Source: an uncultured Desulfosarcina sp.
GTDB taxonomy: Bacteria; Desulfobacterota; Desulfobacteria; Desulfobacterales; Desulfosarcinaceae
DNA length: 64,000 nucleotides
Direction: 5' to 3'
Assembly: GCA_963674945.2 (NCBI GenBank)
Contig: CAXXWQ010000004.1
Coordinates: 928,001-992,000 of the forward strand
In this document: positions 5,468-35,790 of the stretch, piece after piece
How positions within the stretch are numbered: the first letter of the stretch is position 1
How the letters are laid out: each line of letters begins with the position of its first letter
The notes under the pieces: model-generated
What the model saw: only the letters and a program-made list of their open reading frames with translations
What the model was told of the DNA's origin: nothing
Database searches by the model: none
Translations under genes and position numbers: made by a program

Positions 5468-6046
5468 TTACTTCCCTTTTCCCTTACTCTTTATCTTTGG
5501 ATGGTGAGAAAAAAAGGGACCGCCGCATCCCACTAAAAAATCGACGGAACAACGCAGTGTACTAGCCAGCTTAACGATCACATCCGTACTTGCGTGGTAA
5601 CCAGCTTCGATCCTTTTGATTTGATCGACTGGTAGCCCGGAACGTTTGGAAACCTCCGCGATGCTAAATCCCATATCCTCACGCCAATAACGAACCCGTT
5701 TACCCATTTCCGGATCTTTTGCCGCAGGAAGCCCATGGTCTTTGTTGGTTTTGGCATGAAGGTATTTTGGCACATCTTCTTTAACCATCGCATCCGGCAA
5801 ATCAGTCATTTGGTAAAAAACGTGTCCCCATAAAAAATAATCCATCGGTTTACCAGTGGCCACAGATACAGCTAATATGTAATTTAATGAAGGATTTTGG
5901 CTGGCTTTTGCGCTATGAATATTGGATACCACGTTGATCTTCACGCCAACTTTATTCGCCCATTCTGTCCTGGAATAGCCTTCCATTTCCTTCTCAATGC
6001 GTCGAAGGACATCTTTGAAATTGATGTCAATGTGATATTTTTTCAT
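5468..6046 (-). CDS. Repressor with two XRE-type HTH domains (module copy 1)
   Basis: Two HTH segments (SRTEWANKVGVK..NPSLNY and RVRYWREDMGFSIAEVSKRSGL..IEAG); divergent from the integrase. Confidence 0.8.
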   Translation of the reverse strand: MKKYHIDINFKDVLRRIEKEMEGYSRTEWANKVGVKINVVSNIHSAKASQNPSLNYILAVSVATGKPMDYFLWGHVFYQMTDLPDAMVKEDVPKYLHAKTNKDHGLPAAKDPEMGKRVRYWREDMGFSIAEVSKRSGLPVDQIKRIEAGYHASTDVIVKLASTLRCSVDFLVGCGGPFFSHHPKIKSKGKGK

Positions 6047-6063
6047 TTTCTATTATTTTTTTC

Positions 6064-6095
6064 TTGACATTAAGTTCATTTTTTATGTATATAGT
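6064..6095 (+). promoter_or_regulatory. Putative sigma70 promoter towards the integrase side
   Basis: TTGACA at 6064-6069 followed by TGTATATAGT. TTGACA is conserved at the same position in copies 2 and 3. Confidence 0.5.
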
Positions 6096-6135
6096 AACCT
6101 ACACACCCTCAATTGAACCTGATCTCCTATTTTCC

Positions 6136-6208
6136 CAGAATTGTCCCTCTTCAGAATTGTCCCTCTTCAGAATTGTCCCTCTTCAGAATTTTCCTAATAT
6201 TCAGAATT
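6136..6208. repeat. 16-bp tandem repeat CAGAATTGTCCCTCTT x3 plus two degenerate copies
   Basis: Perfect units at 6136, 6152 and 6168; degenerate CAGAATT at 6184 and 6202. Confidence 0.9.
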
Positions 6209-6479
6209 CTTTTGTTGTTAGCTAATGGTGAAGAAATAAGTTCCTTCTTTTAATTAATAATGTAGCCCTAAAACATGTGTCGACAAACAACATTGACTCA
6301 GCGTTTGATTTTCGATTTGCTGATATCGCTCACGGGAGGTTCATTTCTAAATTACATTAATACGTTAACGGAATCAAACCCTTTTCCATTAAACGTAGAG
6401 CAAATAAAATGAGAGTCGTCGAAAAACTCGAAAAAGAATTCAAAAGAAGGCTGAACTTCAATCCAGCAGGTAGGCTGAT

Positions 6480-6662
6480 TTGACTGAAACAATGCAAATA
6501 CAGAAAGATCTTGAGTCTATCAAAAAGCAACTAGCTACGCTGATGGACCATTTGGGAGTCGGGGCCACTCCTCAACGCTCAGATCGGGATATTCAACAAG
6601 AAATATCCAACCGTTTACATAAACAATTGACCCGTGCTAAAAAGTCGAATGGCCGTGCGTGA
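6480..6662 (+). CDS. Small hypothetical protein overlapping the integrase start
   Basis: 60-aa ORF directly upstream of and overlapping the integrase gene. Confidence 0.4.
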   Translation: MTETMQIQKDLESIKKQLATLMDHLGVGATPQRSDRDIQQEISNRLHKQLTRAKKSNGRA

Positions 6663-7686
6663 AATAGGGATAGGTAAATTTCAGTTGGATGTAAGCCGTG
6701 GTGTAGGTAAACGCACCCGTATGGTTTTTTATGGTTCAAAAGCTGAAGCTGAGAAAGCTTTCACCTATTTAAAGCGCCAGTGTGACCAGGAAGACGGCAG
6801 GGAAAAGAAATCCCACTACAATATTGGTGATCTAGTCGATGCCCACCTTGAGCATGAAAAGCTGCACAAAGCGAATAAAACATGGGAGGAAAAAAATAGA
6901 ATCATTCGCGGCCCTATAATGTCCATGTTCCGCAAAATGCACTTCGATTTCGTGTACACATCAACGATTGAAGCCTACAAGAAAAAAAGGGTCAACGATA
7001 TTGGCAAAAAGCACAGAGCCATCAACCTTGAACTGATCTATTTTTCAGGTTTCTGGAAATGGGCATATCAAAACGGGTACTGCCGAAACATGACTATTAA
7101 GATGCCAAAGCTCCCATATAAAAGGAAACCACCCAAAGTTTTAACAAAGTCTGAATGTATGGCCATCTTTCACCATGCTGGACCACATCGACAAGCCATG
7201 TTTCTTTGTTTGTACCACGCTGGATTACGGGCCAATGAAGTGATGACTTTGAAACGATATAATGTAGATTTCACGGGTTGTTCGATTACTGTGATCGGCA
7301 AGGGTGACAAGACCAGAACGGTGCCGATGACACAAACGCTATCCGAAGCGATGAAAAAACATTTTTCGTTGATGGACGATCGTATCTCGAATCCAAAAAC
7401 GAAAGTCCTGTGGGATGAAACCCTGGCCTTTCCGTCACTGCGGACCGGCAAGCAATTAACAGACATTCGCCGGCCATTATGGAACGTGATTGAAAAACCC
7501 GATATCTCGAGAAAGGTGATGCCGCATATTTTGCGACACAGCTTTGCAACCCACATGTTTGAAGCCGACGCGGATTTGAGAACGATCCAGGAATTATTGG
7601 GCCATGAAGATATTGCCACAACCCAGGTGTACAAGCACGTTGCCATCAATAAGAAGAGGACAGTCATTGATTTGCTCAAACAATAA
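6649..7686 (+). CDS. Tyrosine recombinase/integrase, intact (module copy 1)
   Basis: Catalytic R (GLRANE), K (GKGDK), [13 protein letters not shown] and Y (TTQVY). The N-terminal KFQLDV..KRTRMVFYGSKAEAE segment resembles an arm-binding domain. Confidence 0.92.
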   Translation: MAVREIGIGKFQLDVSRGVGKRTRMVFYGSKAEAEKAFTYLKRQCDQEDGREKKSHYNIGDLVDAHLEHEKLHKANKTWEEKNRIIRGPIMSMFRKMHFDFVYTSTIEAYKKKRVNDIGKKHRAINLELIYFSGFWKWAYQNGYCRNMTIKMPKLPYKRKPPKVLTKSECMAIFHHAGPHRQAMFLCLYHAGLRANEVMTLKRYNVDFTGCSITVIGKGDKTRTVPMTQTLSEAMKKHFSLMDDRISNPKTKVLWDETLAFPSLRTGKQLTDIRRPLWNVIEKPDISRKVMPHILRHSFATHMFEADADLRTIQELLGHEDIATTQVYKHVAINKKRTVIDLLKQ

Positions 7687-7708
7687 CCAATATGACTTTG
7701 GACGGCTG

Positions 7709-7724
7709 ATGACAAGCTTGTCAT
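7709..7724. repeat. Perfect palindrome ATGACAAGCTTGTCAT (putative integrase arm-type sites), junction 1
   Basis: Identical 16-mer at 19526-19541 and 35061-35076. Confidence 0.75.
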
Positions 7725-7776
7725 TTTTTCTTCGATTATTTATAGTTTTTTCGGTTACTTATTCTATAACCACCAA

Positions 7777-7822
7777 ACTCTTAATCAGTAGGTTGAAGGT
7801 TCGATTCCTTCACGGCCCACCA
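7777..7822 (+). mobile_element. att core = 3' half of tRNA-Lys(CTT), junction 1
   Basis: ACTCTTAATCAGTAGGTTGAAGGTTCGATTCCTTCACGGCCCACCA contains anticodon loop CT-CTT-AA, T-arm GAAGG/TTCGATT/CCTTC and a CCA end. No 5' half lies upstream. Confidence 0.9.
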
Positions 7823-7838
7823 TCATTAATTTTTTGTT

Positions 7839-7881
7839 TAAAAACGGGAAGTTAGGCTGTTCTGCCGCTTCCCGTTTTTTT
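7839..7881 (+). terminator. Rho-independent terminator after the att core
   Basis: AAAAACGGGAAG..CTTCCCGTTTTTTT. Confidence 0.75.
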
Positions 7882-7897
7882 GTATTTTCTTCCATTA

Positions 7898-7941
7898 TCT
7901 TAATCAGTTGGTTGAAGATTTGATTGCTTCACGGTCAACCA
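7898..7941 (+). mobile_element. Second, degenerate tRNA-Lys 3' half
   Basis: TCTTAATCAGTTGGTTGAAGATTTGATTGCTTCACGGTCAACCA. Confidence 0.75.
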
Positions 7942-8010
7942 AAAAATACTAAGTGAAATTGGTTCTTTATACCTGTTTCGCTTTTTTTTTTAGGGAGTCT
8001 CCATTAAAAA

Positions 8011-8031
8011 AATGACAAGGAAATGACAAGG
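8011..8031 (+). repeat. Direct repeat AATGACAAGG x2 (putative right-arm integrase sites)
   Basis: Same ATGACAAG core as the upstream palindrome; also present at 19832-19852 and 35360-35369. Confidence 0.65.
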
Positions 8032-8664
8032 TGGGCAACCATGTGATCGAACACAGATTTTCACGTGGAATACAGAAAATAATCGTGAGTTGAAACCAGT
8101 TCCCGAAAAGAGCGCTATTGGCAGCTACAGCTTGCCGAGGTCTTTTAATAATTGCCTGAAGGTAACAAGCACAAACTGCGTGAACTGTTCCATGTTCAGG
8201 CCCTCGAAAGCAGAAGGTGGGCGTTGTTCCGTTACACACAGTACCCCTTCAGAGCTTGTTGTTTCAAAATAGAGACTCAGGTTTTCAATGAACGTTTTAA
8301 ACCAGGCAGGGTATTTTTTCGAGAGCTGGTCAAAATCATCCAAGATGGCAGGCATGATTTGGCCGCTCCCGGTTAAAATGTCAAAAATATAGAAGAGGTC
8401 TTTGGCCTTCTTTTCAGGATCTTTTCTCCTTCTGAAAACCAGGCCCTTGTGAAACATATACGCGGCAGGAGTCGGTATCTTAACAATCAATGGGGATGAT
8501 TGTCCTGCTAGTACAGCATCATCAATCGTCACCTCAGTTACATTTTCAGTTACAATGGATATGAATCTGAGGGCTTCGGCATGAAGGCCTTTTTGAACCT
8601 CCAAAACAATTTCAGGGTTGGACCCTGTTTGATCAACCAAAAATTCGATCTCAACATCCATATT

Positions 8665-11120
8665 CAGAACACTGCATCTCCGGGAAAACTATGTGACACC
8701 TCCGGCATGATTTGAGGTGCTGCAGCCATTTAGTTCGAATATCATTTGCAGCTCGGTACCGGGGTATTTTACCTGCGCACTGTTCAGATGCGCAAACAGT
8801 TGGCAAAGAGCCCGATTGGCCGCTGGGAACGAAGCGCCGTGCAATCGTATATTCAATTGCTGATTTTCAATATCGGGCAGTACATCGCCTTCGGTCTGGA
8901 ACAGTGTCTGGAGAAGACTCCGTGCATCCGACGAGTTTACCGTCGGACCCGTGAGCAACCCAACCATTGCCGTCTCTGCACGATATGCAATCATACGAAC
9001 CGTGTCCATCAGGCGTTTTCTGCCCGGTTGTAAACGTAAAAATTTATCTTTTGCTTCAAGTTCTCCCCACGTGATGTGTTTACTTGTCTGTTTTCGTTTT
9101 TCTTTCAACTCGCTGAGTTGATACTCCATCTTTTCGATTTCTTCTAACAGCTCGGCCTTTTTCTCTATCCACTTCTTAAACTTTACCGGTTTGTCTTCAT
9201 TTTCAGGGTGAATGGTCATCTCGGCAAAACAGGCACGACGATATCGTAGCTTGTTCTGCAACGAATTACGGGATTGATTCAATTGCCGCCAAACGGGGTT
9301 GATTACCCGTTCGGTATCAGGAAATTCAACGACACCATAATCTAAAAGCACATCGATATCAAAATGTTGCATCATATAGTTGAAAAAGTTTTCCTGACAC
9401 CACCGGCTGAACATGCGTGCTGCCAATTGAGTATGCGGCAAATCGAAAGCGGTGCTGATTACGCTGGTCTGGTGTCCGGAATCGGTCAGTTTTCGCACTT
9501 GTCGCATCCATGTTGCACCCTTACCAGATCCCACCAAACTACCCATTTCGCAAAGCCGCATCTTCACCACCTCTTTGTTTGGCATCGCAACTTCATACTC
9601 GGTGAACCAATGCTCCGGCCATGATTCACCAGGATGCTTATGATACGTCATGCAGCCGATTCGATGGCGATCCCACATTTCCTTGAAGAATGCGGGACTA
9701 TATCCTTCCCTGTCGAAAACAAGAACGAACCGGCATAAACATGGGTTCTCTTGTAGTTGCTGCAAACCGGGTTGATTCGGAACGTCTTGCAACAACCGGG
9801 GAACGATATCGTCTCTTAAAACCGCCAATAATCCAGGATCGATCTGCTTTTCGACGACAAAAAAAGGTCGGCCAATCGCATCGTTAACCCAATAGTCGGT
9901 AATGCCCCTCATGCACAATCGTTCCCGGGACACGTAGCGGCGCGGTAGTCGGGTCAATTTTCCATGATAAACACGTACATGCCCGTCAACATAAAGCGCG
10001 CCAACCGATTCGGGCGCCTGTTCCATCCAGTATTTACCGAGGTATGCGGCCCACTTTTCCGCGCCGTGGTCTGCGCTCAACGCATCCATCTTGTAACGCA
10101 AACAGCGAACCTCCGGTGCACGATCCAAGCCCAATAACTTACCAAATTCTCCCGGAGCATGGCCTCGTATTTTTTCTGTCGTCTTGATCCTGCATAAGGC
10201 CATAAACGAAAGCAGCAACAAGACATGAAAGATCGTGTAATAGCCTTTGACTTGGCCGAGGAACTGTTTTGCGCCGGTAAACAACCCGTTTGCCACCAAT
10301 GACGGTATCGCACAAAGAACGCCTGCTTTGGGAACGTCCAGGCATCTGTCAAAACGAACCGGCGCACCAACCATTTTGCCCAATGATGCCAATATGCGTT
10401 CCCCGACTCGGTTGCAAGCCGTCCCCATACCATCGGCAGCAGCCATGTCGACCATGTCCCGATCTGATTTGGTTAGACACGGTTCACCAATCCTTGATTC
10501 GATTAACCGACCATCATCTATAGCTTTGCGAAACGTATCGTATTTAATGCCAAGTTCCAGGGCGGCATCTTTTTTCGAGCACCCTTGATCCAGTAAACGT
10601 TGGGCTTGTTCAAGCACCTCAGGTTTGAAAACCTTGCCGCCGCGTCGTCCCCGCCGCTGAACGAAAAATGCCTCGGCGCCGCCGGACCTGAGTTTGTTCA
10701 CGGATCGGATGACATTGCTCTTGGATACGCCGAATGTGTTTTGGATATCGATCTGGCGGCAATCTCCGGATTCAACCAGTTGGGCTGTTATCATCCGAAA
10801 CATTCGTTGATCGCCTTGTCTGTGAGAATAAATCGGAACTGTCGATAGAAAATAGGTCCATTTCGTATCGTCACGAAATACACTGACAAGCCCGTTGATT
10901 TGTCTTGCACCGCGAGGAATAAGTGGTAGTATCTGTTGAGGCATGGCATCCTTTTCCTTTCATTTATCCGCCAAGATAATAAGGTTAAAGGTGCCATGTT
11001 CATTTTCCGGTTGCAATACCTTACCGGCCTGCTGGATTCAGACTCCTATCTTTCTGTTTTTCAACCACTTACATTATGTTTTGCTTGCCATATGCAACAA
11101 TTAGGAAATCAAGTTTCCTG
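8665..11120 (-). mobile_element. Insertion sequence, 2456 bp, 5-bp target duplication ATATT
   Basis: Ends CAGAACACTGCATCTCC / CAGGAAACTTGATTTCC (12/17 match); ATATT at 8660-8664 and 11121-11125. Confidence 0.88.
8689..10944 (-). CDS. Large DDE-type transposase with N-terminal HTH, family not assigned
   Basis: LYVDGHVRVY, VFDREGYS and RWCQENFF motifs; only ORF inside the IS ends. Confidence 0.8.
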   Translation of the reverse strand: MPQQILPLIPRGARQINGLVSVFRDDTKWTYFLSTVPIYSHRQGDQRMFRMITAQLVESGDCRQIDIQNTFGVSKSNVIRSVNKLRSGGAEAFFVQRRGRRGGKVFKPEVLEQAQRLLDQGCSKKDAALELGIKYDTFRKAIDDGRLIESRIGEPCLTKSDRDMVDMAAADGMGTACNRVGERILASLGKMVGAPVRFDRCLDVPKAGVLCAIPSLVANGLFTGAKQFLGQVKGYYTIFHVLLLLSFMALCRIKTTEKIRGHAPGEFGKLLGLDRAPEVRCLRYKMDALSADHGAEKWAAYLGKYWMEQAPESVGALYVDGHVRVYHGKLTRLPRRYVSRERLCMRGITDYWVNDAIGRPFFVVEKQIDPGLLAVLRDDIVPRLLQDVPNQPGLQQLQENPCLCRFVLVFDREGYSPAFFKEMWDRHRIGCMTYHKHPGESWPEHWFTEYEVAMPNKEVVKMRLCEMGSLVGSGKGATWMRQVRKLTDSGHQTSVISTAFDLPHTQLAARMFSRWCQENFFNYMMQHFDIDVLLDYGVVEFPDTERVINPVWRQLNQSRNSLQNKLRYRRACFAEMTIHPENEDKPVKFKKWIEKKAELLEEIEKMEYQLSELKEKRKQTSKHITWGELEAKDKFLRLQPGRKRLMDTVRMIAYRAETAMVGLLTGPTVNSSDARSLLQTLFQTEGDVLPDIENQQLNIRLHGASFPAANRALCQLFAHLNSAQVKYPGTELQMIFELNGCSTSNHAGGVT

Positions 11121-11408
11121 ATATTTTCGATGTAGCCTTCGTAATGAATAACAGGAGGGATGTCCCTGCTTTTGAATACGGCTTCAAAACCTGCCTCCAC
11201 CAACACCTGATCAACCGTTTTTTCGCCGATGACCGGAACGGTTCTCGGAACCATCAAATCTATATCACGTGTACGGATTGGTTCATGACTTGTGTTTCCC
11301 AATAAATATCGGTGATAAACGAAAGGCGCCCATCCCCCTCCGATCACTATCACTGGGAGGTAATCTTTGAGTATCCAGAGTGTCTTTAAAAATCCAGAAA
11401 CAAAAAAG

Positions 11409-12521
11409 TCATTCACTCCGATTCACCTTTTCAAATAAAGGTTTAATCTTTTTGTCCATTAGATGCTCAGCCTGCTCCAGACCGCGAATTGGATAGCTAT
11501 GCAGATCCAGATACAGCTGAATATCTGAGACAACTCGAAGGCTATCGATAATTCGGCTGTCATGAAAAACGGAATGCTTGTAATAGGGAAGCATTAAAAT
11601 CAGATTTGCCCCTTGTTCTGCGTTTTCAAGGTTCAGCTGTTTTTCAAAATACTCCAAGGCCATTTTATTGCCGACGTACATATGAATTTCTTGATAAGCA
11701 GCATATGGGGCAACCAGATTGCCGCCGGCCTGAACACTAAGCGCATAATTGACATTGGAAGGTATTTTTAGATTTCGAATCTTATCCAAAACGTCAACCG
11801 AACTCGTTGCCATCAAAAAATAGCCGAAATTTTTGTTTTTATTGAAATTATAATTTCTGGTCCAGTCATCGAGGATGCTTACAGGATCTCGAAGTTTTAT
11901 TTTGGAATGAATCCGTGAAATATATTTTCGTTTTTCAAGCTCTTTTGCCATGCGCGAAACAAAGCCTGGATCCAAATGAACCCTTTGGGCCAACTCCCTG
12001 ACGCCCCACAGATGTCCACCATCTTTAAGAATAGATCGAAGGATGAGACTGGCTTTATCTGAAAACGGCCCCCTGCCCTTCCGTTCTTCCGGAAACTTAT
12101 TTGGGAAACCAGTTCGCTCCACATAGAGGCTTCTAAATTTGATGAACACGTTTCCGGAAAGGTCAACAAAACAAACACCCTGATCCCGACAAATGTTCTG
12201 CCGCTGTTGGCTTAGATAGGGAGCAGCCAAGACCGGCACTGCATCATTAGACGCGTTTGCTATCGTCTTGAGTCTGGATATCTTGTCTTTCAACACTGAA
12301 AGACTGGTTTTCGCCACAATCTCAATAGTCAACTGAAAACGCAAATCACCATACCGGGCTCGAGCAACAAGATCTGGCGAATCGGATTCGTTTGATATCG
12401 CGCCTGACACCATGTTGATTTTCAGATCGTCTAAAGATAGAAGCCCTTCTAAGGATCTTTCCAGCTCTTTTTTTATTTTTTGTTCAGGTCTCATGTTGTC
12501 TACTTTTAGAATGTTGTCCAT
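11409..12521 (-). CDS. Type IV TA AbiEi-family antitoxin (370 aa), copy 1
   Basis: FVDLSGN, wHTH GVRELA..LDPGFVSR, VSDIQLYLDL..RGLEQAE; overlaps the start of the NTase gene. Confidence 0.8.
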   Translation of the reverse strand: MDNILKVDNMRPEQKIKKELERSLEGLLSLDDLKINMVSGAISNESDSPDLVARARYGDLRFQLTIEIVAKTSLSVLKDKISRLKTIANASNDAVPVLAAPYLSQQRQNICRDQGVCFVDLSGNVFIKFRSLYVERTGFPNKFPEERKGRGPFSDKASLILRSILKDGGHLWGVRELAQRVHLDPGFVSRMAKELEKRKYISRIHSKIKLRDPVSILDDWTRNYNFNKNKNFGYFLMATSSVDVLDKIRNLKIPSNVNYALSVQAGGNLVAPYAAYQEIHMYVGNKMALEYFEKQLNLENAEQGANLILMLPYYKHSVFHDSRIIDSLRVVSDIQLYLDLHSYPIRGLEQAEHLMDKKIKPLFEKVNRSE

Positions 12522-12531
12522 TTGGACAACA
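12493..12531. promoter_or_regulatory. Operator-like repeats TGTTGTC(C/T)A, including inverted repeat TGTTGTCCA-TT-TGGACAACA
   Basis: Direct copy at 12494-12502 and perfect IR at 12512-12531, between divergent genes. Conserved at 25723-25761. Confidence 0.6.
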
Positions 12532-12595
12532 AGTTAATTAAAAACAACACTCACGTCAAGAATAAATTTGAAGCAACCATATGGAGAGGTGATCA

Positions 12596-13795
12596 ATGGC
12601 AACGATTAATCGCAAAGAACTCTACAAAAAGGTATGGGAAACGCCCATCACTCGATTGTCAAAGGAATATGGCTTATCTGATGTGGGCTTTGCCAAGATA
12701 TGCAGAAAACACAATATACCCAGGCCGCCACGGGGTTATTGGGCCAGAAAGGCGGCCGGATACAGGGTAAAACAGATCCCCTTGCCATCTGGGAAGAATG
12801 TTACAATTGAAATCAGCCCCAATCCATACATTCAGAAGGCCAATAAAAACAAAGAACTGGTTGCACAGATATCGCCGTCTGAACAGCCAAATGAGGCACC
12901 CATTGTTGTTCCCGACCGATTGACCAATCAGCACCATTTGACCAAACAAACTTCTGAAATCCTGAATGGCCGGCAACCAGACAAAGAAGGGATTGTACTT
13001 CCTACCAAGAAAGGATGCCTTGATATATCGGTTTCGAAAGCAAGCTTGAGACGAGCCCTTCGTATCATGGACACAATCCTTAAAGCCCTTGAGAAAAGGG
13101 AATGTGAAGTATACCTGTCCAAGGGGTACACCAAAACGAAAATCCATAACGTCCCCGTTAGTTTCAAAATCTACGAGAAATTGGTCAATAGGAGAAAAGA
13201 GCCCAAAGAACATAGTCTGGATAGCCGCTACCGGTTTGGGCACAGCAGGTTCATCGAAGAACGTATCCCCTCAGGGGATCTATGTCTCACAATTCACCAG
13301 GCCGATGGCTTTTATATTTACGGTTGTCAGCAAAACTGGAACGACGGGAAAAAATCAAAGCTCGAAGAGCGCATCAATAGTTTCATCGATGGCCTGGTAA
13401 CGGTCGCTGTTGCTAAGATCGCGCGTGACAAAGAAAAGATGGAGGAAGAAAAGCGAAGGATCGAACGGCAAAAAAGACTTGAAGAGGAAAGGGAGATACG
13501 CGCCGTGCTAAGACGCAAGTACATGGAAGAAGAAGCCAGGGTAAATCAATTAATAGCCGAAGCCGAAAATTGGAAAAAGAGCCAAATTCTCCGGGACTAC
13601 ATCGTTGAAATTGAAAGTAGCGCAACTAATGAAAATCTATCGCTTAGCCCCGAGAAGCCGTTAAACGAATGGCTAAAATGGGCCAAGGACCAGGCGGACC
13701 GGCTGGACCCTTTGAAACAAAGCCCGCCATCGATTCTCGACGAGGAATGCCCGCCGGAAGAGAAGCGAAATGAATATTCCTATTACCGATATTAA
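12596..13795 (+). CDS. Conserved hypothetical protein (ELY..VW..P...L....G.SDV...K.C....IP.P.RGYW N-terminal domain)
   Basis: 399-aa ORF with GGAG/GAGGTGA RBS, HTH-like N-terminus and coiled-coil C-terminus ending W..WA..QADRLDPL. Confidence 0.75.
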   Translation: MATINRKELYKKVWETPITRLSKEYGLSDVGFAKICRKHNIPRPPRGYWARKAAGYRVKQIPLPSGKNVTIEISPNPYIQKANKNKELVAQISPSEQPNEAPIVVPDRLTNQHHLTKQTSEILNGRQPDKEGIVLPTKKGCLDISVSKASLRRALRIMDTILKALEKRECEVYLSKGYTKTKIHNVPVSFKIYEKLVNRRKEPKEHSLDSRYRFGHSRFIEERIPSGDLCLTIHQADGFYIYGCQQNWNDGKKSKLEERINSFIDGLVTVAVAKIARDKEKMEEEKRRIERQKRLEEEREIRAVLRRKYMEEEARVNQLIAEAENWKKSQILRDYIVEIESSATNENLSLSPEKPLNEWLKWAKDQADRLDPLKQSPPSILDEECPPEEKRNEYSYYRY

Positions 13796-13809
13796 ATCAC
13801 GTTTTTGTC

Positions 13810-14991: not shown

Positions 14992-15048
14992 GTGTCTGAA
15001 AAATGACCGATAATTTTAAGATTAGGGGCTAAAGGAAACAAATAAGTT

Positions 15049-15580: not shown

Positions 15581-15588
15581 GGATTTGA

Positions 15589-16586: not shown

Positions 16587-16596
16587 CGTCGGCGTC

Positions 16597-26239: not shown

Positions 26240-26401
26240 AATGCTGGTGGCTGATAATGTGTAGTAGCCTAGTACAGCGGGACTATTAGTTTCCACGAGT
26301 ACGAATGTGGCTGCCACGTGTTTGCGGATATCCTGGCCGGCTTGCCTGTGCAGATAGCGGTCCAGGACAACTTTGCTGCATGTAAAAACTTTGCGATTGT
26401 G
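26240..26401 (-). pseudogene. GNAT acetyltransferase toxin fragment
   Basis: HNRKVFTCSKVVLDRYLHRQAGQDIRKHVAATFVLV...VLGYYTLSATSI; C-terminal half absent. Confidence 0.7.
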
Positions 26402-26473
26402 GCTGTATTGATCAAACGATGCACATGATACGTCCCCCGTTCTACCCTTTAAATTAGATATGCGATACGGTTA

Positions 26474-26520
26474 CTATTCTGTGCAAATTGGAACCCCATA
26501 TTCCAATTTGCACAGAATAG
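26474..26520. repeat. Perfect 20-bp inverted repeat with a 7-nt loop
   Basis: CTATTCTGTGCAAATTGGAA-CCCCATA-TTCCAATTTGCACAGAATAG, followed by TTGACA at 26523. Confidence 0.9.
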
Positions 26521-26550
26521 CCTTGACAGAGTCTCACCGCTTATTTAATC

Positions 26551-27732: not shown

Positions 27733-28317
27733 ATCGTCCATTCTGAGAATTCGATGGCTGTCGAACAAGTCCCTAGCTTGTCGGCGCGAGAATAGCGCAG
27801 CCAATTTCCCGGCAGCCAATTCATTGAGATTCAGCACGGGAATTTCCGTTGCTCGCCACGTCCCGACAGCATGAGAATCTCTGATTGTCACTGGCCACAA
27901 TGGAACACGGAACATGAAATTAAGATCTACTTCTAAGTTACCACCCTGGCCAAGAGCGTTTTTATACCGCAACGACCACTTGCCTCCGGCGTGCTCTTCA
28001 GGCATCCGCCTGACAGTGAACCCCTCACGAGCAAAAACTGCCTGAACGGCTTGTTCGACCTTGGGGCGGTCAGCGAGCATGCCATCTCGATCTGCGGCTC
28101 CCACATAGTTCAAATCGATGTCGACAGAAAGCCGGGGTACATCAAAGACAAATAGGTTCAAGGCCGTTCCGCCCTTGAGCACCAGCTTCCCTTTGAGGAA
28201 TGGATGACTCCGCAATGCATCCAACAGCCCCAACAGCTGAGCAACCTTTTCGAGCATATCCGGCCTGAAGCCTGTCGCTTCCGCTTCGGCTGCAAGCTTC
28301 TCGGGAGAAATCTTCAT
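27729..28317 (-). pseudogene. AbiEii nucleotidyltransferase toxin, probably C-terminally truncated
   Basis: LKGGTALN, RLSVDIDLNY, AGKLAALF.R.QARDLFD. After ~196 aa it runs into antisense sequence of the convergent ATPase gene. Confidence 0.7.
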
Positions 28318-29120
28318 GACACCTCTCCCCATGTTCGTCCGAGGACTTCGCTTGGGACCACCAAGTTCCATTCCGACACGAATCGACCAGATTTCCGCTT
28401 GGAACGGTTCAGGTAATGAGGCTGCCTTGGACGCAGGTCGCGAAGCACATTAAGATGTCGGTCATCAACCATCAATGTTTCGCGGTGTTGATCGAGAAAA
28501 AACCCCACTTTTGCCCCGGTGGTCGAATTTCCAAGCAGGAGCGCGTATTCCACGACCTTATCGAGGTCGAAGAATTCGACGGACTCCAGCGACCGCCATA
28601 TTTCCTCCCAACTTCCTGAGAGGTCTGGACGATCAAGCACATCGACCAAGGTCCGTTCCAGGGTCGTAACCCTCAATTCCAGGCCAGATCGCTCTGCGGC
28701 CGAAACACCAAAATTTTCTTTGCCAAAACGGACAAGCGCTTGACGAAACCTCGCTCCCCGGAAAACGTACGCTCGAAAATTCAAAGATCCAAGCGGACGG
28801 GATGCCGAGTAGACAAAGTGTGTATGAACCGAGTAAGCCTTGCCGTAAAATTCAAGCGCGGTGTAGTGCGACAGCACTGCATCCGGTGTTAACTTCACGG
28901 CTACGAGAAAAGGGTCGATAGGATATGAACCGGGATCGGCTCCCGGGGGAATAACGGCATACAACCCTCGTCGCACCAGGACAATCCGACCAACCTTCCG
29001 GTGATAGGCCAAAAATGACTCCTGCGTTCGTCCGCGGACCTCGCCCAGAGACGATAAATGACCAGCCAACTCTTTTCCGGTAAAAACCGGATGCTTTCGG
29101 AAAAACTCATCATGTTTCAT
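28314..29120 (-). CDS. AbiEi-family antitoxin (268 aa), copy 2
   Basis: Near-identical paralog of 15780-16586; ATGA overlap with AbiEii. Confidence 0.85.
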   Translation of the reverse strand: MKHDEFFRKHPVFTGKELAGHLSSLGEVRGRTQESFLAYHRKVGRIVLVRRGLYAVIPPGADPGSYPIDPFLVAVKLTPDAVLSHYTALEFYGKAYSVHTHFVYSASRPLGSLNFRAYVFRGARFRQALVRFGKENFGVSAAERSGLELRVTTLERTLVDVLDRPDLSGSWEEIWRSLESVEFFDLDKVVEYALLLGNSTTGAKVGFFLDQHRETLMVDDRHLNVLRDLRPRQPHYLNRSKRKSGRFVSEWNLVVPSEVLGRTWGEVS

Positions 29121-29751
29121 CGTCGGCGTCCTTGACTTTGTTTCATGTTACCCATAAAAATTCCATGGGTTTCATAATTAAATGTCAAGTAAAAGCCTCG
29201 GTCCAATCTATCCAACCGACTTGACAGATTAACACAGAACCCATATCTAATTATGGGTTTCGCATGTGCGTGTCAAGAGCTAAATGAGGAAATAGGGGGA
29301 AGTCGGGTTTGTGGGGAAATCTGAAGGAAATCTGATCAGCTTCCAAAGCTGGGGTTTTTTAATGTGAATACATGTCCGATTATCGCAAATGATTGGCCTA
29401 ATAATGAGCGACCCTTGCGTTGGACAAACACACATTATAGGTCGTGCTTACCTAAACTAAAAAGTACCGGTGATAGAATCAATGGTCCGCCACTGGCCAT
29501 GACTCCTATTGCGGTTTCGTTCGGCAAACTTGTTGTTTCCAAAGGGAAACCGGGGCCGGGACCATCTTGAAGGATACAGATTCGAATTGATTGTTTGAGG
29601 AGGCATGAAAACATAGACCTGCCTATTATGGTGTCAGCTGCGGTCTGAAGATGCATCAAAGCTGGCGATTTAAAAATGTTCAATGATTATGCCGAGAAGT
29701 TTGGTCACCCGAGCCGTTTTTTTACGACTCGGGCGACTTTTCACGGCGGTT

Positions 29752-30507
29752 TTATCCTTCGATTTTCTCTTTCATACGATAGCTTTTCCCTTCGATGAGA
29801 ACGGTTTCGGCATGGTGCAACAGCCTGTCGAGGATAGCGGAAGTCAGCGTACTGTCGTTGTTAAAGATTTCCGGCCAGTCTTTGAAAGCTCGGTTGGACG
29901 TGATTGCCAGCGCCCCTTGCTCGTAGCGCCGACTGATGACCTGGAACAATAGATCCGCGCCGGCCTTGTCGATGGGCAGAAAGCCCAATTCGTCGAGGAT
30001 CAGAAGTGAGGGACGGGTATATTTTTTCAATTCCTGTTTCATCCGTCCCGCGGCCTGGGCAGCCGAGAGGGTGTTGATCACATCGATGGCCGTGGCAAAC
30101 AAAACCGTATATCCCGCAAGACAAGCCTCGTAACCCAAGGCGGATACCAGATGGGTTTTGCCCAGGCCCACACCGCCCAGGAAAATGATATTGGCCGGTT
30201 GTTTGACAAATTGCAACCTGAACATTTGCTGAACTTGAAGGCGGTTGATCTTCTTAGGCCAGGTCCAATCGAATGCGTCCAGCGTTTTAACCACCGGAAA
30301 ACGTGCCTGGTTAATACGGCGTTTGGTGGAACGATCTTTTCTCAAGGCCGCTTCGCCATCGGCCAGTTTTTCCAAATAGTCCTCATGGGACCAGTTGTTT
30401 TTGGCGGCCTGTTTTGCCATTTGGTGATGTTGTTCACGCATGAACGGCAGTTTCAAATATTTGAGATGACAGTCAAGGGGATGCTCCGGGAATTGCTTGT
30501 CGGTCAT
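29752..30507 (-). CDS. istB: IS21 helper ATPase
   Basis: GGVGLGKTHL, LLILDELG, ITSN, AILDRLLHH..GKSYR. Confidence 0.93.
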   Translation of the reverse strand: MTDKQFPEHPLDCHLKYLKLPFMREQHHQMAKQAAKNNWSHEDYLEKLADGEAALRKDRSTKRRINQARFPVVKTLDAFDWTWPKKINRLQVQQMFRLQFVKQPANIIFLGGVGLGKTHLVSALGYEACLAGYTVLFATAIDVINTLSAAQAAGRMKQELKKYTRPSLLILDELGFLPIDKAGADLLFQVISRRYEQGALAITSNRAFKDWPEIFNNDSTLTSAILDRLLHHAETVLIEGKSYRMKEKIEG

Positions 30508-31970
30508 GCGTCCTCCTTTTGGTAGATGGTCAGATCGGGCGATTGTACCGTCAACTCCAATAGATCCTCACGGCGGGTCAGATGCAAGGCGCCGGGTTCG
30601 GGCAGGCAACGGGTGCGCTGTTCGAGCAGATTGGCGATATACTCGCAGGAAAAGGCTTGGAAAACGAAGGCATCCTCCATTGCCCTGGCAACGGCCTCGG
30701 GGCCGTGAATTTCGCTTAGGGCGACGATTTTCTGCACATGATGATAGGGGTTCATGCGTCGCTGTTCGAGCTTTCGATAATATTGTTCGGATTTTGGCGA
30801 CAGGGATAAAAACCGCATGACGATCTTCTTTTCGCGGGCCTTTTTCCGCCATAGCAACAACTGCCTGGGATGATCCGGGTCCTCGAAGTCCTGGTGGCGG
30901 TCATAACTTCTCGCATGGCGAGCAATCAATTTGTTGTCGTGATAAAGACAAAGCCGGTCAGGATAGGTTTTTAGGGTCAGCCGGCGTCCGGCATACTCGG
31001 CCAGCACCGAGTAGCGGTTTGTATCGAGCGTTACGCGGAACTGGCTCGAAGCCCGGACCTGGGAAACGGTAGTGATGTCGAAACGATGCCTCGGCAAAGG
31101 GTTTAAAACAGATCGCTCTTTTTCGAACCGTTCGATGGGTTTTTCGTGGGTTTCGCCATGAATACGCGGGTTGGCCACCGAATCGATCCAGTACCTGGCT
31201 GCCGGATGAATCGAAGGAAAATCGGGAATGTCCAATCCGGCCAGAAAGTTCTTTTTCACATAGCCGACGCCGTTTTCCACGCGCCCTTTTTCATTGCCTT
31301 TGCCTACGTTGCAAGCCGCTATGTTAAATCCGTAGTAATTGGCAAAATCCAGGTACTTGGGATTGAAAACCGGGACCATACCGATAATTCTTTTGAGAAC
31401 GGCGCTTTTGAGATTGTCCACCATGATTTTGCGGGGCACCCCGCCGAAGTACTCAAAGGCGTTTTGATGGCATCCCAGAAAATGCTCCATGGTTTGGGAG
31501 ACGGTGAACTCCACATACATCAAGCGGCTATGGCAAAGCACCATTACGAAAAAACTGAGCCGTCTGCGTGTATTGCCGACATTGACGGAACCATAGGATC
31601 CCCAATCGACTTGGGCACATTCGCCCGGAGCGAACGACAGGGTGAGATATGCACTGGTCTTGGGCGGCCTGACCTTTCTGACGTAGTCCTTGACGATGGA
31701 ATAGCGGCCTGTAAAACCCTTCTCCAGGATACGTTGAAAGATCTGGGTGGCGGTGTAGGGATGGGCTTCGAGCGATCGAACGATTTCTTGTTTGAAGGGA
31801 TCGAGCTTGCTGGTGCGCGAAGTGCTTTGACGAGGTTTGAAGTGGGCTTCGCCAAGCCATTTGCGGACCGTTCTCACGTCCATTGAAAGCTCTTGGGCGA
31901 TCTGCGGGGCGGTCAATCCATCGCTTGTTCTCAGGTGGTTGATTTTGCAGTAAAGGGCATAATCGATCAT
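30504..31970 (-). CDS. istA: IS21 transposase
   Basis: PGE.AQVDWG, DNLKSAV, KGRVENGV, RIHGET. Confidence 0.93.
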   Translation of the reverse strand: MIDYALYCKINHLRTSDGLTAPQIAQELSMDVRTVRKWLGEAHFKPRQSTSRTSKLDPFKQEIVRSLEAHPYTATQIFQRILEKGFTGRYSIVKDYVRKVRPPKTSAYLTLSFAPGECAQVDWGSYGSVNVGNTRRRLSFFVMVLCHSRLMYVEFTVSQTMEHFLGCHQNAFEYFGGVPRKIMVDNLKSAVLKRIIGMVPVFNPKYLDFANYYGFNIAACNVGKGNEKGRVENGVGYVKKNFLAGLDIPDFPSIHPAARYWIDSVANPRIHGETHEKPIERFEKERSVLNPLPRHRFDITTVSQVRASSQFRVTLDTNRYSVLAEYAGRRLTLKTYPDRLCLYHDNKLIARHARSYDRHQDFEDPDHPRQLLLWRKKAREKKIVMRFLSLSPKSEQYYRKLEQRRMNPYHHVQKIVALSEIHGPEAVARAMEDAFVFQAFSCEYIANLLEQRTRCLPEPGALHLTRREDLLELTVQSPDLTIYQKEDA

Positions 31971-32344
31971 GGCCGGCCCTCCCCGATGCGCTTGAAGATC
32001 TGCCCAAGCCCCTGGAGCGCACCGCTGGTCCTTTCCGGCTCGGCCTCAATGGCCAGGACCTGATACAACGGCTTGCGATAGGCAATCAGGCCGATGTCGA
32101 TCAACTCGCCGCGAACCCGGGAAATCTCGTTTTCGTCCATTCCCAGACGCCCGGATAGGGTTCGTGTGGAATAATAGCTCATGCCCTTTGCATCGGCGAC
32201 CGTGACCAGGAACAAATACAAGGCCGCAGCCCTATGCGTGCAGCGGTCGATGTAATGTCCGCTGACCAACCGGTGATCGAGCCAACTGAACTGTTTTGGG
32301 ATTTTACGGATACGATCGGGGTAAATAGGATGTTTGGCTACCAT
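31967..32344 (-). CDS. Small winged-helix-like protein
   Basis: GGAGG RBS; FSW.DHRL...LYLFL..VAD..G.SYYS...L; ATGA overlap with istA. Confidence 0.7.
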   Translation of the reverse strand: MVAKHPIYPDRIRKIPKQFSWLDHRLVSGHYIDRCTHRAAALYLFLVTVADAKGMSYYSTRTLSGRLGMDENEISRVRGELIDIGLIAYRKPLYQVLAIEAEPERTSGALQGLGQIFKRIGEGRP

Positions 32345-32825
32345 GGCGGCCTCCTTGATATTGAGGGTTAAGGATATCGTCGCCCAATTGTTGCATGCGA
32401 CGAACGGCCATGGCGATGTCATCTTGTAACGCATACCCGGTTAATTGGGCAATAATACCAATTAATACGGTTGGTTGTCCCGTTACGAGATCTTGTAACG
32501 CACGATTTGCAAAATCAGTGATATTAACTGTTTTATCAATATGTTGTCGATTTAAGGGATCTTGTAACGCATCGCCGCTGTTTTCGGGCTTCTTTCGCCA
32601 GTATCCCGGATTGTCCTTTCGCCACTGCTGGACCCGCTCTACATTATCCGGCCCACGAAAGTAATCGACATTCTCGGGCTTTTGGTTCCACCGCTTCTGG
32701 CTATCGGCCTTGCTGGCCTTACGACATTCAGGCTTTTTGCAGTAACGTTGGCGGTTTTTGTTACGATGATCGGGAACGAATAACCGATGGCAATGACGAC
32801 ACTTTTTCCGTTTAATCCCTGACAT
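32304..32825 (-). CDS. Cys-rich (putative Zn-binding) hypothetical protein with ALQD repeats
   Basis: CRHC..YC..PEC; overlaps the next gene. Confidence 0.7.
   Translation of the reverse strand: MSGIKRKKCRHCHRLFVPDHRNKNRQRYCKKPECRKASKADSQKRWNQKPENVDYFRGPDNVERVQQWRKDNPGYWRKKPENSGDALQDPLNRQHIDKTVNITDFANRALQDLVTGQPTVLIGIIAQLTGYALQDDIAMAVRRMQQLGDDILNPQYQGGRHGSQTSYLPRSYP
32421..32571. repeat. 13-mer ATCTTGTAACGCA x3 with exact 69-bp period
   Basis: Starts at 32421, 32490 and 32559. Confidence 0.9.
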
Positions 32826-33038
32826 TGGTCGCGACCCTCCTGCGAGCCAATGTTATCCATCTCGTCATTGATTAGACCAACTTTTTACAGGCAAAAAAAT
32901 AAGATAAGAAAAAGAGAAGAATATAGGGTTAAAAACATATTGTGGAAGAAAATGATGCCTGTACCTGCGGACATTTTCAAATCGTCAGGAATAAGACAGT
33001 CTCAGGTTGCTGCTGGCATTATGGTTTGATATTTCCTT

Positions 33039-33308
33039 TTATGAAATTGAAGCCTTTTGAGCCAAATAATGCTGATCTAAGGATTGACGCAGATAGGTTT
33101 TTATGACAGCTTGCCGGCTGATATTTAATTCCTTTGCAAGGACGTCCAGTTCCTTAAGCATATCAATACTAAAGTCCACATTAACTCTCTGAATGGCTGG
33201 TTTCATCTCGCCCTTATTTGTAAAATGCTGAGAGATGTCCTCACCACTCATGGCTTTTTCGGCAATTTCGTCAGCGGTTATTTTTTTCTTTTTAGCTGTA
33301 CTCATCAT
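33039..33308 (-). CDS. BrnA/CopG-type antitoxin, copy 2
   Basis: Paralog of 15049-15318. Confidence 0.8.
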   Translation of the reverse strand: MMSTAKKKKITADEIAEKAMSGEDISQHFTNKGEMKPAIQRVNVDFSIDMLKELDVLAKELNISRQAVIKTYLRQSLDQHYLAQKASIS

Positions 33309-33570
33309 ATAGTTTCTCTTCTTCTTTTGTTGATCTCCAGAGTGTGACAAGATGATAGTATTCACCTTTGTCATCTTCTCTGATTTCGTATATTACCGAG
33401 TAAAGCCTTCCCTGAACCCATCCGATGGCACGAAACTGCTCTGGATCGTCACTACGACAGTCCACGTAATGGGGGTGTGTCCAAATTTCTTGGACCTCGG
33501 AAAAACCGATATTTCGGCGAGGGTCTGCTTTAAGCTTTTTACTCTTTCGACTGTCGTATTTAAACCTCAT
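33292..33570 (-). CDS. BrnT-family toxin, copy 2
   Basis: Paralog of 15302-15580. Confidence 0.8.
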   Translation of the reverse strand: MRFKYDSRKSKKLKADPRRNIGFSEVQEIWTHPHYVDCRSDDPEQFRAIGWVQGRLYSVIYEIREDDKGEYYHLVTLWRSTKEEEKLYDEYS

Positions 33571-33699
33571 GGATTTGAACTGTATAACAGTTATACCATC
33601 TTGTCAACGCAATACGAACTTGTTGAAGTGAAAATAAGGCAGTAAAAATTGGGAATTTAGATTCGCTTCTTTTGAGGTGACACTGAGCTGTCAATAGCC

Positions 33700-34248
33700 T
33701 CATCTACGCTTTCCTTTCTGATTTGGGTGATGAGATACAGAAGATACACCACATCCCAACAAAAAATCGATGGAACAACGCAGTGTATTGGCCAGTTTAA
33801 GGATCACATCCGTACTGGTGTGGTAACCGGCTTCTATTCTTTTGATTTGATCAACGGGCAACCCGGAGCGTTTGGAAACCTCCGCGATGCTAAATCCCAT
33901 ATCCTCACGCCAATAACGTACCCGTTTGCCCATTTCCGGATCTTTGTTGGTTTCGGAATGAGGGTATGTTGGTACATCTTCTTTCACCATTTTGTCCAAT
34001 GGATCAGTCGTTTGGTAAAAAACGTGTCCCCATAAAAAATAATCCATCGGTTTGCCGGTGGCCACTGATACAGCTAATATGTAATTCAATGAAGGATTTT
34101 GGCTGGCTTTTGCGCTGTGAATATTGGATACCACGTTGATCTTCACACCCACTTTATTCGCCCATTCTGTTCTGGAATAGCCATCCATTTCCTTCTCAAT
34201 GCGTCGAAGGACATCTTTGAAATTGATGTCAACGTGATATTTTTTCAT
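33700..34248 (-). CDS. Double-XRE repressor copy 3
   Basis: Paralog of 5468-6046 with an in-frame linker deletion. Confidence 0.8.
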   Translation of the reverse strand: MKKYHVDINFKDVLRRIEKEMDGYSRTEWANKVGVKINVVSNIHSAKASQNPSLNYILAVSVATGKPMDYFLWGHVFYQTTDPLDKMVKEDVPTYPHSETNKDPEMGKRVRYWREDMGFSIAEVSKRSGLPVDQIKRIEAGYHTSTDVILKLANTLRCSIDFLLGCGVSSVSHHPNQKGKRR

Positions 34249-34579
34249 TATCTATAATTTTTTCTTGACAATAAATTCATTGTATTTGTATTAATGATCT
34301 GCACGCCTTCAATTGAACCTGATCTCATATTATTCCAGAATTTTTTCTATTCGGCATTTCTATATCAGTCGGCTCTTTTCAACTATTGCTTTAATGGTGC
34401 AGAAGCAGGTTCCAATATTTAATTTTTAATGTAATTCTAAATTATATATATCGACAAACAGCAAGGACTCAAGATTAGATTTTCTATTTGCTAATATCGC
34501 TCACGGGAGATTCATTTTTAAATTACATCAATACGTTAATGGAATCAAATCCTATTCCATTAAATGTAGGACAGATAAA

Positions 34580-35053
34580 AATAGATGCCGCTGAAAAACT
34601 CGAAATAAAATTTGTTCGACCTCTCACCGCAAAAGAGTTTATGGCCACGAGCTGTTTGTCGATTTCCCTATGGATGAATAAATGTTTGGACAAAGTGAAA
34701 TCCCGATTTTTGAAAAAAAAATGAAGAAAGTGGGCATATCAAAACGGGGAGACAAGGGTGACAAGACCAGAACGGGGCCGATGACACAAACGCTATCCGA
34801 AGCGATGAAAAAACATTTTTCGTTGATGGACGATATTATTTCGAATCCAAAAACGAAAGTCCCGTGGGATGAAACCCTGGTCTTTGCTTCACTGCGAAGC
34901 GGCAAGCAAATGACAGACATCCGCCGGCCATTATGGAACGCGATTGAAAAAGCCGGTATTTCGAGAAAGGTGACGCCACACATTTTGCGACACAGCTTTG
35001 CAACCCACATGCTCGAAGGCGACGCGGATCTGAGACGATCCAGGAGTTATTGG
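34580..35053 (+). pseudogene. Integrase copy 3 remnant
   Basis: Only [22 protein letters not shown] remains; catalytic Arg and Tyr regions are deleted. Confidence 0.85.
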
Positions 35054-35128
35054 ATGACTGATGACAAGCTTGTCATTTTTACTTGGATTATTTATTGTTT
35101 TTACGGATAGTTATTCTATGAACACCAA

Positions 35129-35174
35129 ACTCTTAATCAGTAGGTTGAAGGTTCGATTCCTTCACGGCCCACCA
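35129..35174 (+). mobile_element. att core = 3' half of tRNA-Lys(CTT), junction 3
   Basis: Identical to 7777-7822; followed by a terminator (35195-35233) and a second half (35250-35293). Confidence 0.9.
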
Positions 35175-35790
35175 TCATCAATTTTATGTTTAATAACGGG
35201 AAGTTAGGCTCTTTTGCCTCTTCCCGTTTTTTTGTACTTTCTTCCATTATCTTAATCAGTTGGTTGAAGGTTTGATTCCTTCACGGTTCACCAAAAAATA
35301 CTATGCGAAATCGGTTAGTTATACCGGTTTCGCTTTTTTTAGGGAGTCTCCATTTAAAAAATGACAAGGCGGCCGACTTTGTGATCGAACAGATAGATAT
35401 TCTACATACCACTTAAAAGTTCTTTGATGAAATAAAAGCCGAATGTGCGGGTCAATACGTGGCATACAAGTCATTACGAGAGAAGAATGCCCTCTTGTCA
35501 AATTGTACTATTGTACTACTGAATCCGCTTGGCAAGCCCCCGTCTATCTGGGATGAACAATCTGATACCAAATGACCATAGCGAAAAACATATGAATCTA
35601 TGAAAATGGCAGTTTGGTAGGAAAATACAAGATGTTGGCGAATGGGAGGGCAATTCAAACGGATTCAGACTGAAAGGCAAAGCCATTCCGGCGATCCCAT
35701 AAAAAAAGATCCTACCGGTTTTTGTGTCCTTGCCACGGATGCAAAAATTTGGAAGTATGAGATATCTTCCGCAGCGATATATCATCATCC

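Follow-up and report, generated by a model that had tools for sequence, protein, structure and literature searches.

For ICESt1/ICESt3-type integrative and conjugative elements (ICEs), a three-step model has been described in which integration is followed by decay to a cis-mobilizable element (CIME) and by accretion; the section of PMC5704250 cited here also reports the transfer of CIME-ICE tandems. According to the cited parts of PMC7563491, CIMEs comprise 1.2-13 kb and microCIMEs without genes 130-220 bp, decay is most advanced in the element at the greatest distance from the target gene, composites consist of two or three elements, and tandems at tRNA-Lys(CTT) occur in S. agalactiae. CIMEs are frequently found in composites with ICEs (PMC10201445, in the portion used), and SXT/R391 tandem arrays at one site give rise to RecA-made deletions and hybrids (PMC5812530, likewise in part). 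Here, an array of this kind at the 3' end of tRNA-Lys(CTT) is described from an uncultured Desulfosarcina sp. The window, which is the whole stretch of 64,000 nucleotides that was analyzed, corresponds to C4:928001-992000, where C4 is one of the four contigs of the 7.08-Mb genome G000. Coordinates without prefix refer to the window.

With a probability of roughly 0.7, the locus represents the right end of a ~157-kb ICE at tRNA-Lys(CTT) and, next to it, two remnants of the same family with dead integrases, which would most likely be mobile only as passengers of the ICE. It fits a further case of the already described ICE-CIME-microCIME accretion and has two modest twists: a repressor is retained in the sister remnants, and a junction with two cores is repeated three times. 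Accretion at tRNA-Lys(CTT), as postulated in an initial annotation of this DNA, is supported. With this locus, a process that has mostly been described for streptococci is extended to a sulfate reducer; no general principle is changed by it. A limited literature search naming Desulfosarcina together with integrative conjugative elements or genomic islands found no paper.

The similarity to CIME tandem accretion (PMC5704250, cited section) consists in the loss of integration and transfer genes, the retention of attachment (att) sites and the tandem position downstream of an element newly arrived at the same tRNA end. In contrast to the ICESt1/ICESt3 CIMEs as presented there, a repressor and an integrase stub are left in the remnants, and the deletion in the stub is common to both, so that two sister remnants of one lineage are stacked. 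Furthermore, the host is not a Streptococcus but a Desulfosarcina, the transfer apparatus is an F-type type IV secretion system (T4SS), and the mobility of the remnants is a prediction from sequence. Like the S. salivarius microCIMEs and composites (PMC7563491, cited parts), the locus contains gene-less, att-bounded relics, and decay is strongest in the element most distant from the target. Compared to the 130-220 bp given there, the relic is slightly shorter, with 119-121 bp from core to core; each of the three junctions has one, in which the second core is degenerate. The F-type T4SS and an SXT-like TraD are shared with SXT/R391, and an identical tract of 497 bp suggests tandem recombination. 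However, the target is tRNA-Lys and not prfC as in the cited portion of PMC5812530, no MOBH relaxase was found, and the tandem partners are remnants.

Exact and degenerate cores at three junctions

Alignment confirmed three identical 46-bp stretches at 7777, 19594 and 35129. Each corresponds to positions 32-77, the 3' half, of tRNA-Lys(CTT), with 46/46 residues identical to C4:778920-778965 (E 1e-19 each). These exact cores (core 1, 7777..7822, plus strand; core 2, 19594-19639; core 3, beginning at 35129) are spaced by 11,817 and 15,535 bp. Cores 1 and 2 bound unit 1 (7777..19593), and cores 2 and 3 bound unit 2 (19594..35128); both units are CIME-like remnants. As had been annotated, the tRNA homology begins at the anticodon loop, more precisely one base 5' of it. 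Tyrosine integrases often cross over in this loop. ARAGORN detected zero tRNA genes in the window. The intact tRNA-Lys(CTT) gene, which had been expected upstream, was located at C4:778889-778965; it is the genome's only copy and precedes core 1 by 156,857 bp on the same strand.

Each exact core is part of a composite junction. The left arm of junction 1 (7698..7776) contains a 14-bp palindromic arm-type site at 7710-7723 (motif positions). The motif is also present in the related genomes G007 and G016 and in the marine metagenome contig L067, and left arms with the palindromic site are retained at 3/3 junctions. Note that the arm-type sites are putative and were named by position and conservation. 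Core 1 is followed by a microCIME-like spacer of ~75 bp (7823..7897, plus strand), which lacks genes, contains a terminator hairpin and repeats at 19640-19715 and 35175-35249 (hairpin z = -5.8, -4.0 and -5.4). The adjacent segment 7898..8035 (plus strand) consists of a degenerate core and an ICE-type left arm with a decayed terminator and two arm-type sites. This arm is 83% identical to the DNA 3' of the intact tRNA, and its hairpin reaches -12.7 vs -22.2 kcal/mol. A second, degenerate tRNA half lies 119-121 bp beyond each exact half and differs in 6, 10 and 4 of 44 positions at junctions 1, 2 and 3, respectively. At junction 3, exact core, spacer, degenerate core and left arm comprise 35129..35369 (plus strand). 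Among 65 family genomes searched, the composite junction was found in G000 only.

Most junction parts differ by 8-13% between the copies. Exempt from this is the 497-bp tract at approx. 19145..19644, which comprises the integrase end, the arm and core 2 and is identical to 7331-7827 according to the mismatch list. The identity of junctions 1 and 2, which runs from inside the integrase end to just beyond the core, points to a conversion or an unequal exchange between them in recent time. Of the columns of the exact cores, 0/46 are variable, compared to 31/198 in the flank on their right (Fisher p 0.002). As the identical tract is common to junctions 1 and 2, the comparison of core and flank was repeated pairwise with junction 3 and yielded p values of 0.012-0.035. 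This suggests that, once the copies had diverged, each core either completed a functional tRNA at its 3' end or was restored from such a tRNA.

The initial annotation had named an assembly artefact as a possible source of the repeats. The 497-bp identical tract and the many insertion sequence (IS) copies could mislead a short-read assembly, and no contig of the sequencing runs compared (X1-X5 and X8) covers a whole junction with both flanks; the run data are assembled contigs without phasing across the 46-bp core. Nevertheless, an artefact is highly improbable. The copies are 8-13% apart outside the tract, the genome is assembled in only 4 contigs, and in run X1 the shared block has a depth of 71.9-72.8 vs 23.8-29.4 for the unique parts of both units. 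The repeated block, at ~3x the unique depth, therefore exists in three real copies and each unique part in one; no assembly duplication is involved and the units are not amplified. Note that X1 is possibly the source sample and that its depth is not independent support.

The probable element between tRNA-Lys and the intact integrase

The intact tRNA, a tra backbone, an intact integrase and the three exact cores are in direct orientation on one contig. A Pfam scan covered 139/145 open reading frames (ORFs) of at least 90 aa in C4:770-930 kb and left out six ORFs at tile edges. Behind the intact tRNA, a replication-initiator-like gene, traL, E, K, B, V, C, U, trbC, H, G and traD were found; traD is SXT-like and lacks the N-terminal part. 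The backbone further contains parB, ssb, a RepB primase gene, DUF932, radC and a gene for an Integrase_1-family recombinase. It spans ~40 kb (C4:779-820 kb) and encodes an F-type T4SS with a VirB4-like TraC and a coupling protein, as expected for an ICE. Moreover, an integrase and att sites at both ends are present, the left junction at C4:778920 and core 1 being on the same strand. The annotated absence of replication and conjugation genes thus holds inside the units but not between tRNA and integrase, where tra genes, traD, parB, ssb, the RepB primase gene and the replication-initiator-like gene reside. Most likely, the intact integrase closes a ~157-kb ICE that extends from tRNA-Lys to core 1, and not an islet.

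In G007 and G016, a collinear backbone of 71-92% identity is located directly behind the tRNA-Lys gene. Among 30 relatives, these two are also the only ones with a close integrase, again between repressor and core, on another contig. The backbone was further found in G004 and G015, and TraC in 6/64 family genomes besides G000. In G009, most of the C4:821-933 kb cargo lies on one contig between tRNA-Lys and rpsF; this cargo is partly duplicated in G009 and G000. No ribosomal protein or aminoacyl-tRNA synthetase genes were detected between backbone and integrase in the scan of C4:770-930 kb.

The segment C4:821-933 kb together with window positions 1-5014 comprises ~110 kb of stress and carbon-metabolism cargo. 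It includes genes for FtsH, HSP20, an extra ATP synthase operon, an extra GroEL, PEP-utilising enzymes and GH130.

Integrase and repressor copies

A repressor-like gene is oriented divergently from the integrase or an integrase remnant ahead of each core (3/3). The annotated layout of three repressor-integrase copies is therefore correct for each core, but repressor 2 contains a frameshift, and only pieces of integrases 2 and 3 are left. Copy 1 forms the right end of the upstream ICE. Repressor 1 (5468..6046, minus strand; HTH_3, Pfam PF01381) is intact and has a length of 192 aa; its homologues adjoin the integrase in G007, G016 and the locus L068. The tyrosine integrase (6634..7686, plus strand, ATG at 6649; PF00589) possesses the catalytic residues R199, K223/K226, H298, R301, H324 and Y333 (motif positions), and the comparison with G016 yielded a dN/dS of 0.09-0.14, that is, purifying selection. 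The claim that one integrase is intact was confirmed, and this copy is the sole cognate enzyme in the G000 genome.

Copies 2 and 3 are decayed to different degrees. Repressor 2 (18027..18612, minus strand) is followed by integrase remnant 2 (18943..19503, plus strand), an open frame of 186 aa that contains residues 223-350 only and has lost the first catalytic Arg. Repressor 3 (33700..34248, minus strand) is open, with 182 aa and an in-frame 24-bp deletion, and integrase remnant 3 (34578..35049, plus strand) combines the deletion of remnant 2 with a frameshift and the loss of the catalytic Tyr region. One common deletion has removed the first two thirds of the integrase from both remnants. Integrase decay thus grows with distance from the tRNA, copy 1 being intact and copy 3 most damaged. 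The repressor copies differ by 0.40-0.56 synonymous substitutions per site (dS) and have a dN/dS of 0.10-0.14, indicative of purifying selection.

These features make the units CIME-like. Their att sites derive from the target gene, exact 46-bp cores flank each unit and the arm motifs are retained. A functional recombination gene is missing, as both integrase remnants lack the residues before 223 including the first catalytic Arg. No conjugation or mobilization genes were found in the units when the longer ORFs were scanned with Pfam, PADLOC, NCBIfam and PHROG. As expected for a deletion derivative of an ICE or an integrative and mobilizable element (IME), the left arm, the repressor, the integrase end and the AbiE module are common to the units and the ICE family. 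An IME would carry its own integrase and a relaxase; neither is present in the units.

Directly 5' of the intact integrase, a 60-aa ORF (6480..6662, plus strand) is conserved in G016, G007 and L068. It has zero PHROG matches and is a possible candidate for a directionality factor. A 16-bp tandem repeat of ~3.5 copies (6136-6194) lies between repressor 1 and the integrase and is missing from copies 2 and 3. Short coding remnants pointing away from the repressor were noticed at 6409-6480 and 18943-19110. Copies 2 and 3 retain a piece that is missing in copy 1 and possibly stems from an old excisionase-like gene (judged by eye; zero PHROG matches for that part).

Relatives of the integrase with context were found at 2 loci in genome contigs and 3 in metagenome contigs, and the triple array is present in 0 of those 5. 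In L067:1387-7506, a different island, which has an integrase of its own, adjoins this integrase and core; at this site, unrelated elements have accreted.

Arm-site spacing and probable modes of excision

At the left junction, which contains the intact tRNA, the putative arm sites are 117/128 bp away from the core. At the internal junctions, 112-129 bp separate them from the degenerate cores, and the exact cores are 231-249 bp away. By its spacing, each internal junction is therefore a good right-hand but a poor left-hand site. The likely reactions would combine the left junction with junction 1, 2 or 3, and the units would leave together with the ICE (157, 169 or 184 kb). The locus offers a clean natural test set for such reactions: besides a single integrase and a single left junction, it has three right junctions that diverge to graded extents, and a displaced-arm junction.

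According to the initial annotation, the units are satellite-like islets, which the intact integrase could release one by one in trans, as circles of 11.8 and 15.5 kb, and re-insert or reorder. Several findings agree with this proposal: exact cores flank each unit, the left arm is conserved and at junction 2 identical to that of junction 1, the integrase is intact, and purifying selection acted on the repressors as they diverged (dN/dS 0.10-0.14). Moreover, one streptococcal composite is reported to excise at an internal junction that is chimeric (cited part of PMC7563491). However, the distance of the right-hand arm sites from the exact cores is ~120 bp too large, and the correctly spaced cores are degenerate. 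Furthermore, the units are at single-copy depth in X1, their only replication-like gene belongs to an IS21 element, and their cargo is decaying, with 4/4 type IV toxins broken. Independent excision in trans is thus unlikely, and the arm-site spacing would favor excision with the ICE over circles of 11.8 or 15.5 kb. Circles were not seen among the run contigs, which are unphased across the 46-bp core and would not reveal them.

Phage satellites such as P4-like elements and phage-inducible chromosomal islands (PICIs) are defined by primase/replicase and capsid-interference genes. The units resemble them in a size of 10-15 kb, a repressor beside the integrase at a tRNA end and defence-type cargo. 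In contrast to these satellites, neither primase/replicase nor helper- or capsid-interference genes were detected in the units (Pfam and PHROG scans), the integrase is dead, and the units are connected with the ICE through both their arms and their cargo. Instead of satellite-like islets, they appear to be decayed relatives of the ~157-kb element.

Proposed history of the array

Both units have one integrase deletion and one composite left end in common. Their left arm corresponds to that of the ICE, and unit 1 continues into the ICE interior (8044-8123 resembles C4:827155 over 80 bp). The shared cargo blocks are 96-97% identical with a dS of 0.06-0.12, and the BrnTA and AbiE modules are arranged in opposite order in units 1 and 2. 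The units are mosaics, given a repressor dS of 0.40-0.56 vs a cargo dS of 0.06-0.12 and two order-swapped modules.

One might assume that a single remnant was duplicated in place by unequal homologous recombination, followed by divergence, differential gene loss and conversion, with no site-specific steps after the first integration. The common integrase deletion and composite left end, the high identity of the cargo blocks, the 497-bp tract and the similar divergence of most junction parts (8-13%) would be explained in this way. In contrast, the opposite order of BrnTA and AbiE is impossible to derive from one duplication plus deletions, the difference between repressor and cargo dS requires several sources, and the cores are exact while the adjoining flanks have drifted. 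In-place duplication is for these reasons rather improbable, if somewhat less so than excision of single islets.

The array probably arose by accretion with an ICE, and its history would then have been as follows. Of an early element, only the repressor, a stub of the integrase, the arm and the core would have persisted, preceded on the left by a ~120-bp relic (microCIME). In different strains, sister copies of this remnant would have resided directly behind the tRNA, where the tRNA half was kept intact and the flanks drifted by ~10%. An ICE integrating at the tRNA would have displaced a remnant downstream, would then have excised together with it by recombination of the left junction with the right junction of the remnant, and would have carried it into a strain in which a sister remnant was already present. 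Thereafter, the stacked copies would have exchanged cargo and repressor alleles by homologous recombination, from which the identical tract of 497 bp would also stem. Repeated rounds between strains with sister remnants would build the array.

Several observations weigh against this history and against the ICE on which it builds. Excision and transfer are deduced from sequence. The step through a sister strain has no direct witness: no other genome among the 65 searched has the composite junction, and runs X5 and X8 show only the start of unit 2. Conservation of the cores could reflect gene conversion with the tRNA rather than selection. The ends of the ICE are on separate contigs in G007 and G016, where their linkage is inferred; the ICE of G004 is broken by a rearrangement, with left arm and backbone ~240 kb apart; and G015 possesses the backbone without this integrase and has an empty tRNA-Lys. 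Cargo of C4:920-930 kb recurs at 75-90% in many genomes of the genus at unrelated places, and the span from tRNA to integrase may not be one element. Furthermore, rpsF, the gene 3' of tRNA-Lys(CTT) in most of the examined genomes of the genus, is on another contig in G000 (C3:1767670). A rearrangement has apparently removed the original right flank of the composite island (rpsF region C3:1767545-1767670). The true right end of the composite was not found, and no core precedes rpsF on C3.

The transfer functions raise further objections. traG is interrupted by an IS and encodes 807 aa vs 1052-1108 aa. A relaxase, which belongs to an ICE, was not found among the 139/145 ORFs scanned in C4:770-930 kb. 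Profile searches of G000 with PF07514, PF08751 and PF03432 yielded nothing in the element, other relaxase families being covered by the Pfam scan only, and PF07514 had only weak matches in five relatives, none of them at the element. A 184-aa ORF before traD has no longer relatives and no Atlas match. As no relaxase was found, the element is a decayed ICE at best; with traG interrupted as well, transfer, if any, was past or is helper-dependent. It looks unable to transfer alone.

A bolder view is that the integrase-dead unit, rather than being debris, forms a long-lived non-autonomous lineage, whose selected repressor perhaps acts on the related ICE, and which multiplies via the ICE integrase although its arm is displaced by ~120 bp and trades toxin-antitoxin (TA) modules among sister copies. 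This is quite doubtful, marginally more so than independent excision of the units. If true, a reshuffling defence and immunity array would exist at tRNA-Lys.

Cargo and IS elements of the units

The units had been described as filled with TA genes and ATPases. Both were found; however, the IS content reaches 21% in unit 1 and 43% in unit 2, and the defence cargo is largely broken. In unit 1, a nucleotidyltransferase toxin gene (8125..11416, minus strand; PF12281, PF21804) is split by an IS of the Transposase_29 family (8665-11120), which has a 5-bp target duplication and ~27 copies in the genome. The AbiEi_2 type IV antitoxin (11409..12521, minus strand; PF09952) is intact. It has a copy in unit 2 (24639-25751), where the toxin is reduced to a stub of ~35 bp and the block is 96.8% identical. 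A second antitoxin, AbiEi (15723..16586, minus strand; PADLOC), is intact and accompanied by an AbiEii stub of 38 codons. In the AbiE module of unit 2 (27619-29120), AbiEii covers only 196/306 profile positions. In G007 and G004, the same module adjoins the repressor. Altogether, 4/4 type IV toxins are split, stubbed or truncated, whereas all four antitoxins are open. TA-rich islands can thus be mostly disarmed, with antitoxins retained and type IV toxins lost.

The type II pairs look intact, namely two BrnT/BrnA-like pairs and one Xre/RES pair. The first BrnT/BrnA-like pair (15049..15580, minus strand; RHH_1, and PF04365 below cut-off with E 1.5e-5) has a 96.0% identical copy in unit 2 at 33039-33570. 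The Xre/RES pair is located at 23593..24455 (plus strand; PF09722, PF20432, PF08808). Unit 1 further encodes an AAA_14-DUF4143 ATPase (16825..17985, plus strand), which is the PADLOC candidate PDC-S01 and has a distant paralogue (27%) at 26551-27732. A 399-aa protein without a named family and a 393-aa ankyrin protein are encoded at 12596..14991 (plus strand) and possibly form a defence pair. The former belongs to a widespread unnamed family (Atlas score 0.97; zero Pfam matches; only unnamed clusters) and is cut to 63 codons in unit 2. The latter is weakly similar to the PADLOC candidate PDC-M72A. Fragments of a GNAT-type toxin gene and a LysR-type regulator gene were named by eye in unit 2 (26231-26430 and 19850-20036).

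Two IS elements in unit 2 carry passengers. The IS66-family element (20037..23467, plus strand) contains a DruA-like gene (PF14236) and is present in 5 full identical genome copies, two of which have 8-bp target duplications, in contrast to the copy at 20037-23467, which has none. A Druantia system was ruled out, as DruA is a passenger of this five-copy IS66-type element and had zero PADLOC matches. In runs X5 and X8, which represent one sample from a separate study, the start of unit 2 was found without the IS66 element, and the integrase at 97% in X5. Relatives with variant units therefore exist. The IS21-family element (29752..33020, minus strand) consists of istA, istB and two upstream passenger genes, which code for a 173-aa protein and an HTH_36 protein weakly similar to phage replication initiators. 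The passengers occur in 11/64 family genomes; istA adjoins in 10/11 loci, and six dispersed copies are present in G010. The HTH_36 gene was therefore rejected as a replication gene of unit 2. Integron-like cassettes were also ruled out: six module boundaries, judged by eye, lack a common motif and end near promoters or inside genes. As a whole, the array is today mostly decaying.

The region beyond junction 3

A matching right end was not found for the sequence beyond junction 3. At 35370..35590, scraps of the ICE left end and of the Integrase_1 gene mark the start of what is probably a fourth, more decayed element. Positions 35426-35480 match C4:779080-779134, and 35545-35590 match C4:819481-819526. 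More cargo scraps are present at C4:999221-999506, and genes beyond junction 3 also occur in a tRNA-Lys island of the related genome G038. Given the ICE scraps, the cargo scraps and the genes shared with G038, this older element probably starts past junction 3. Farther downstream (47785-54305), 46-bp imperfect inverted repeats that are 6.4 kb apart enclose selO, an IS4-type transposase gene and a BLUF-EAL gene.

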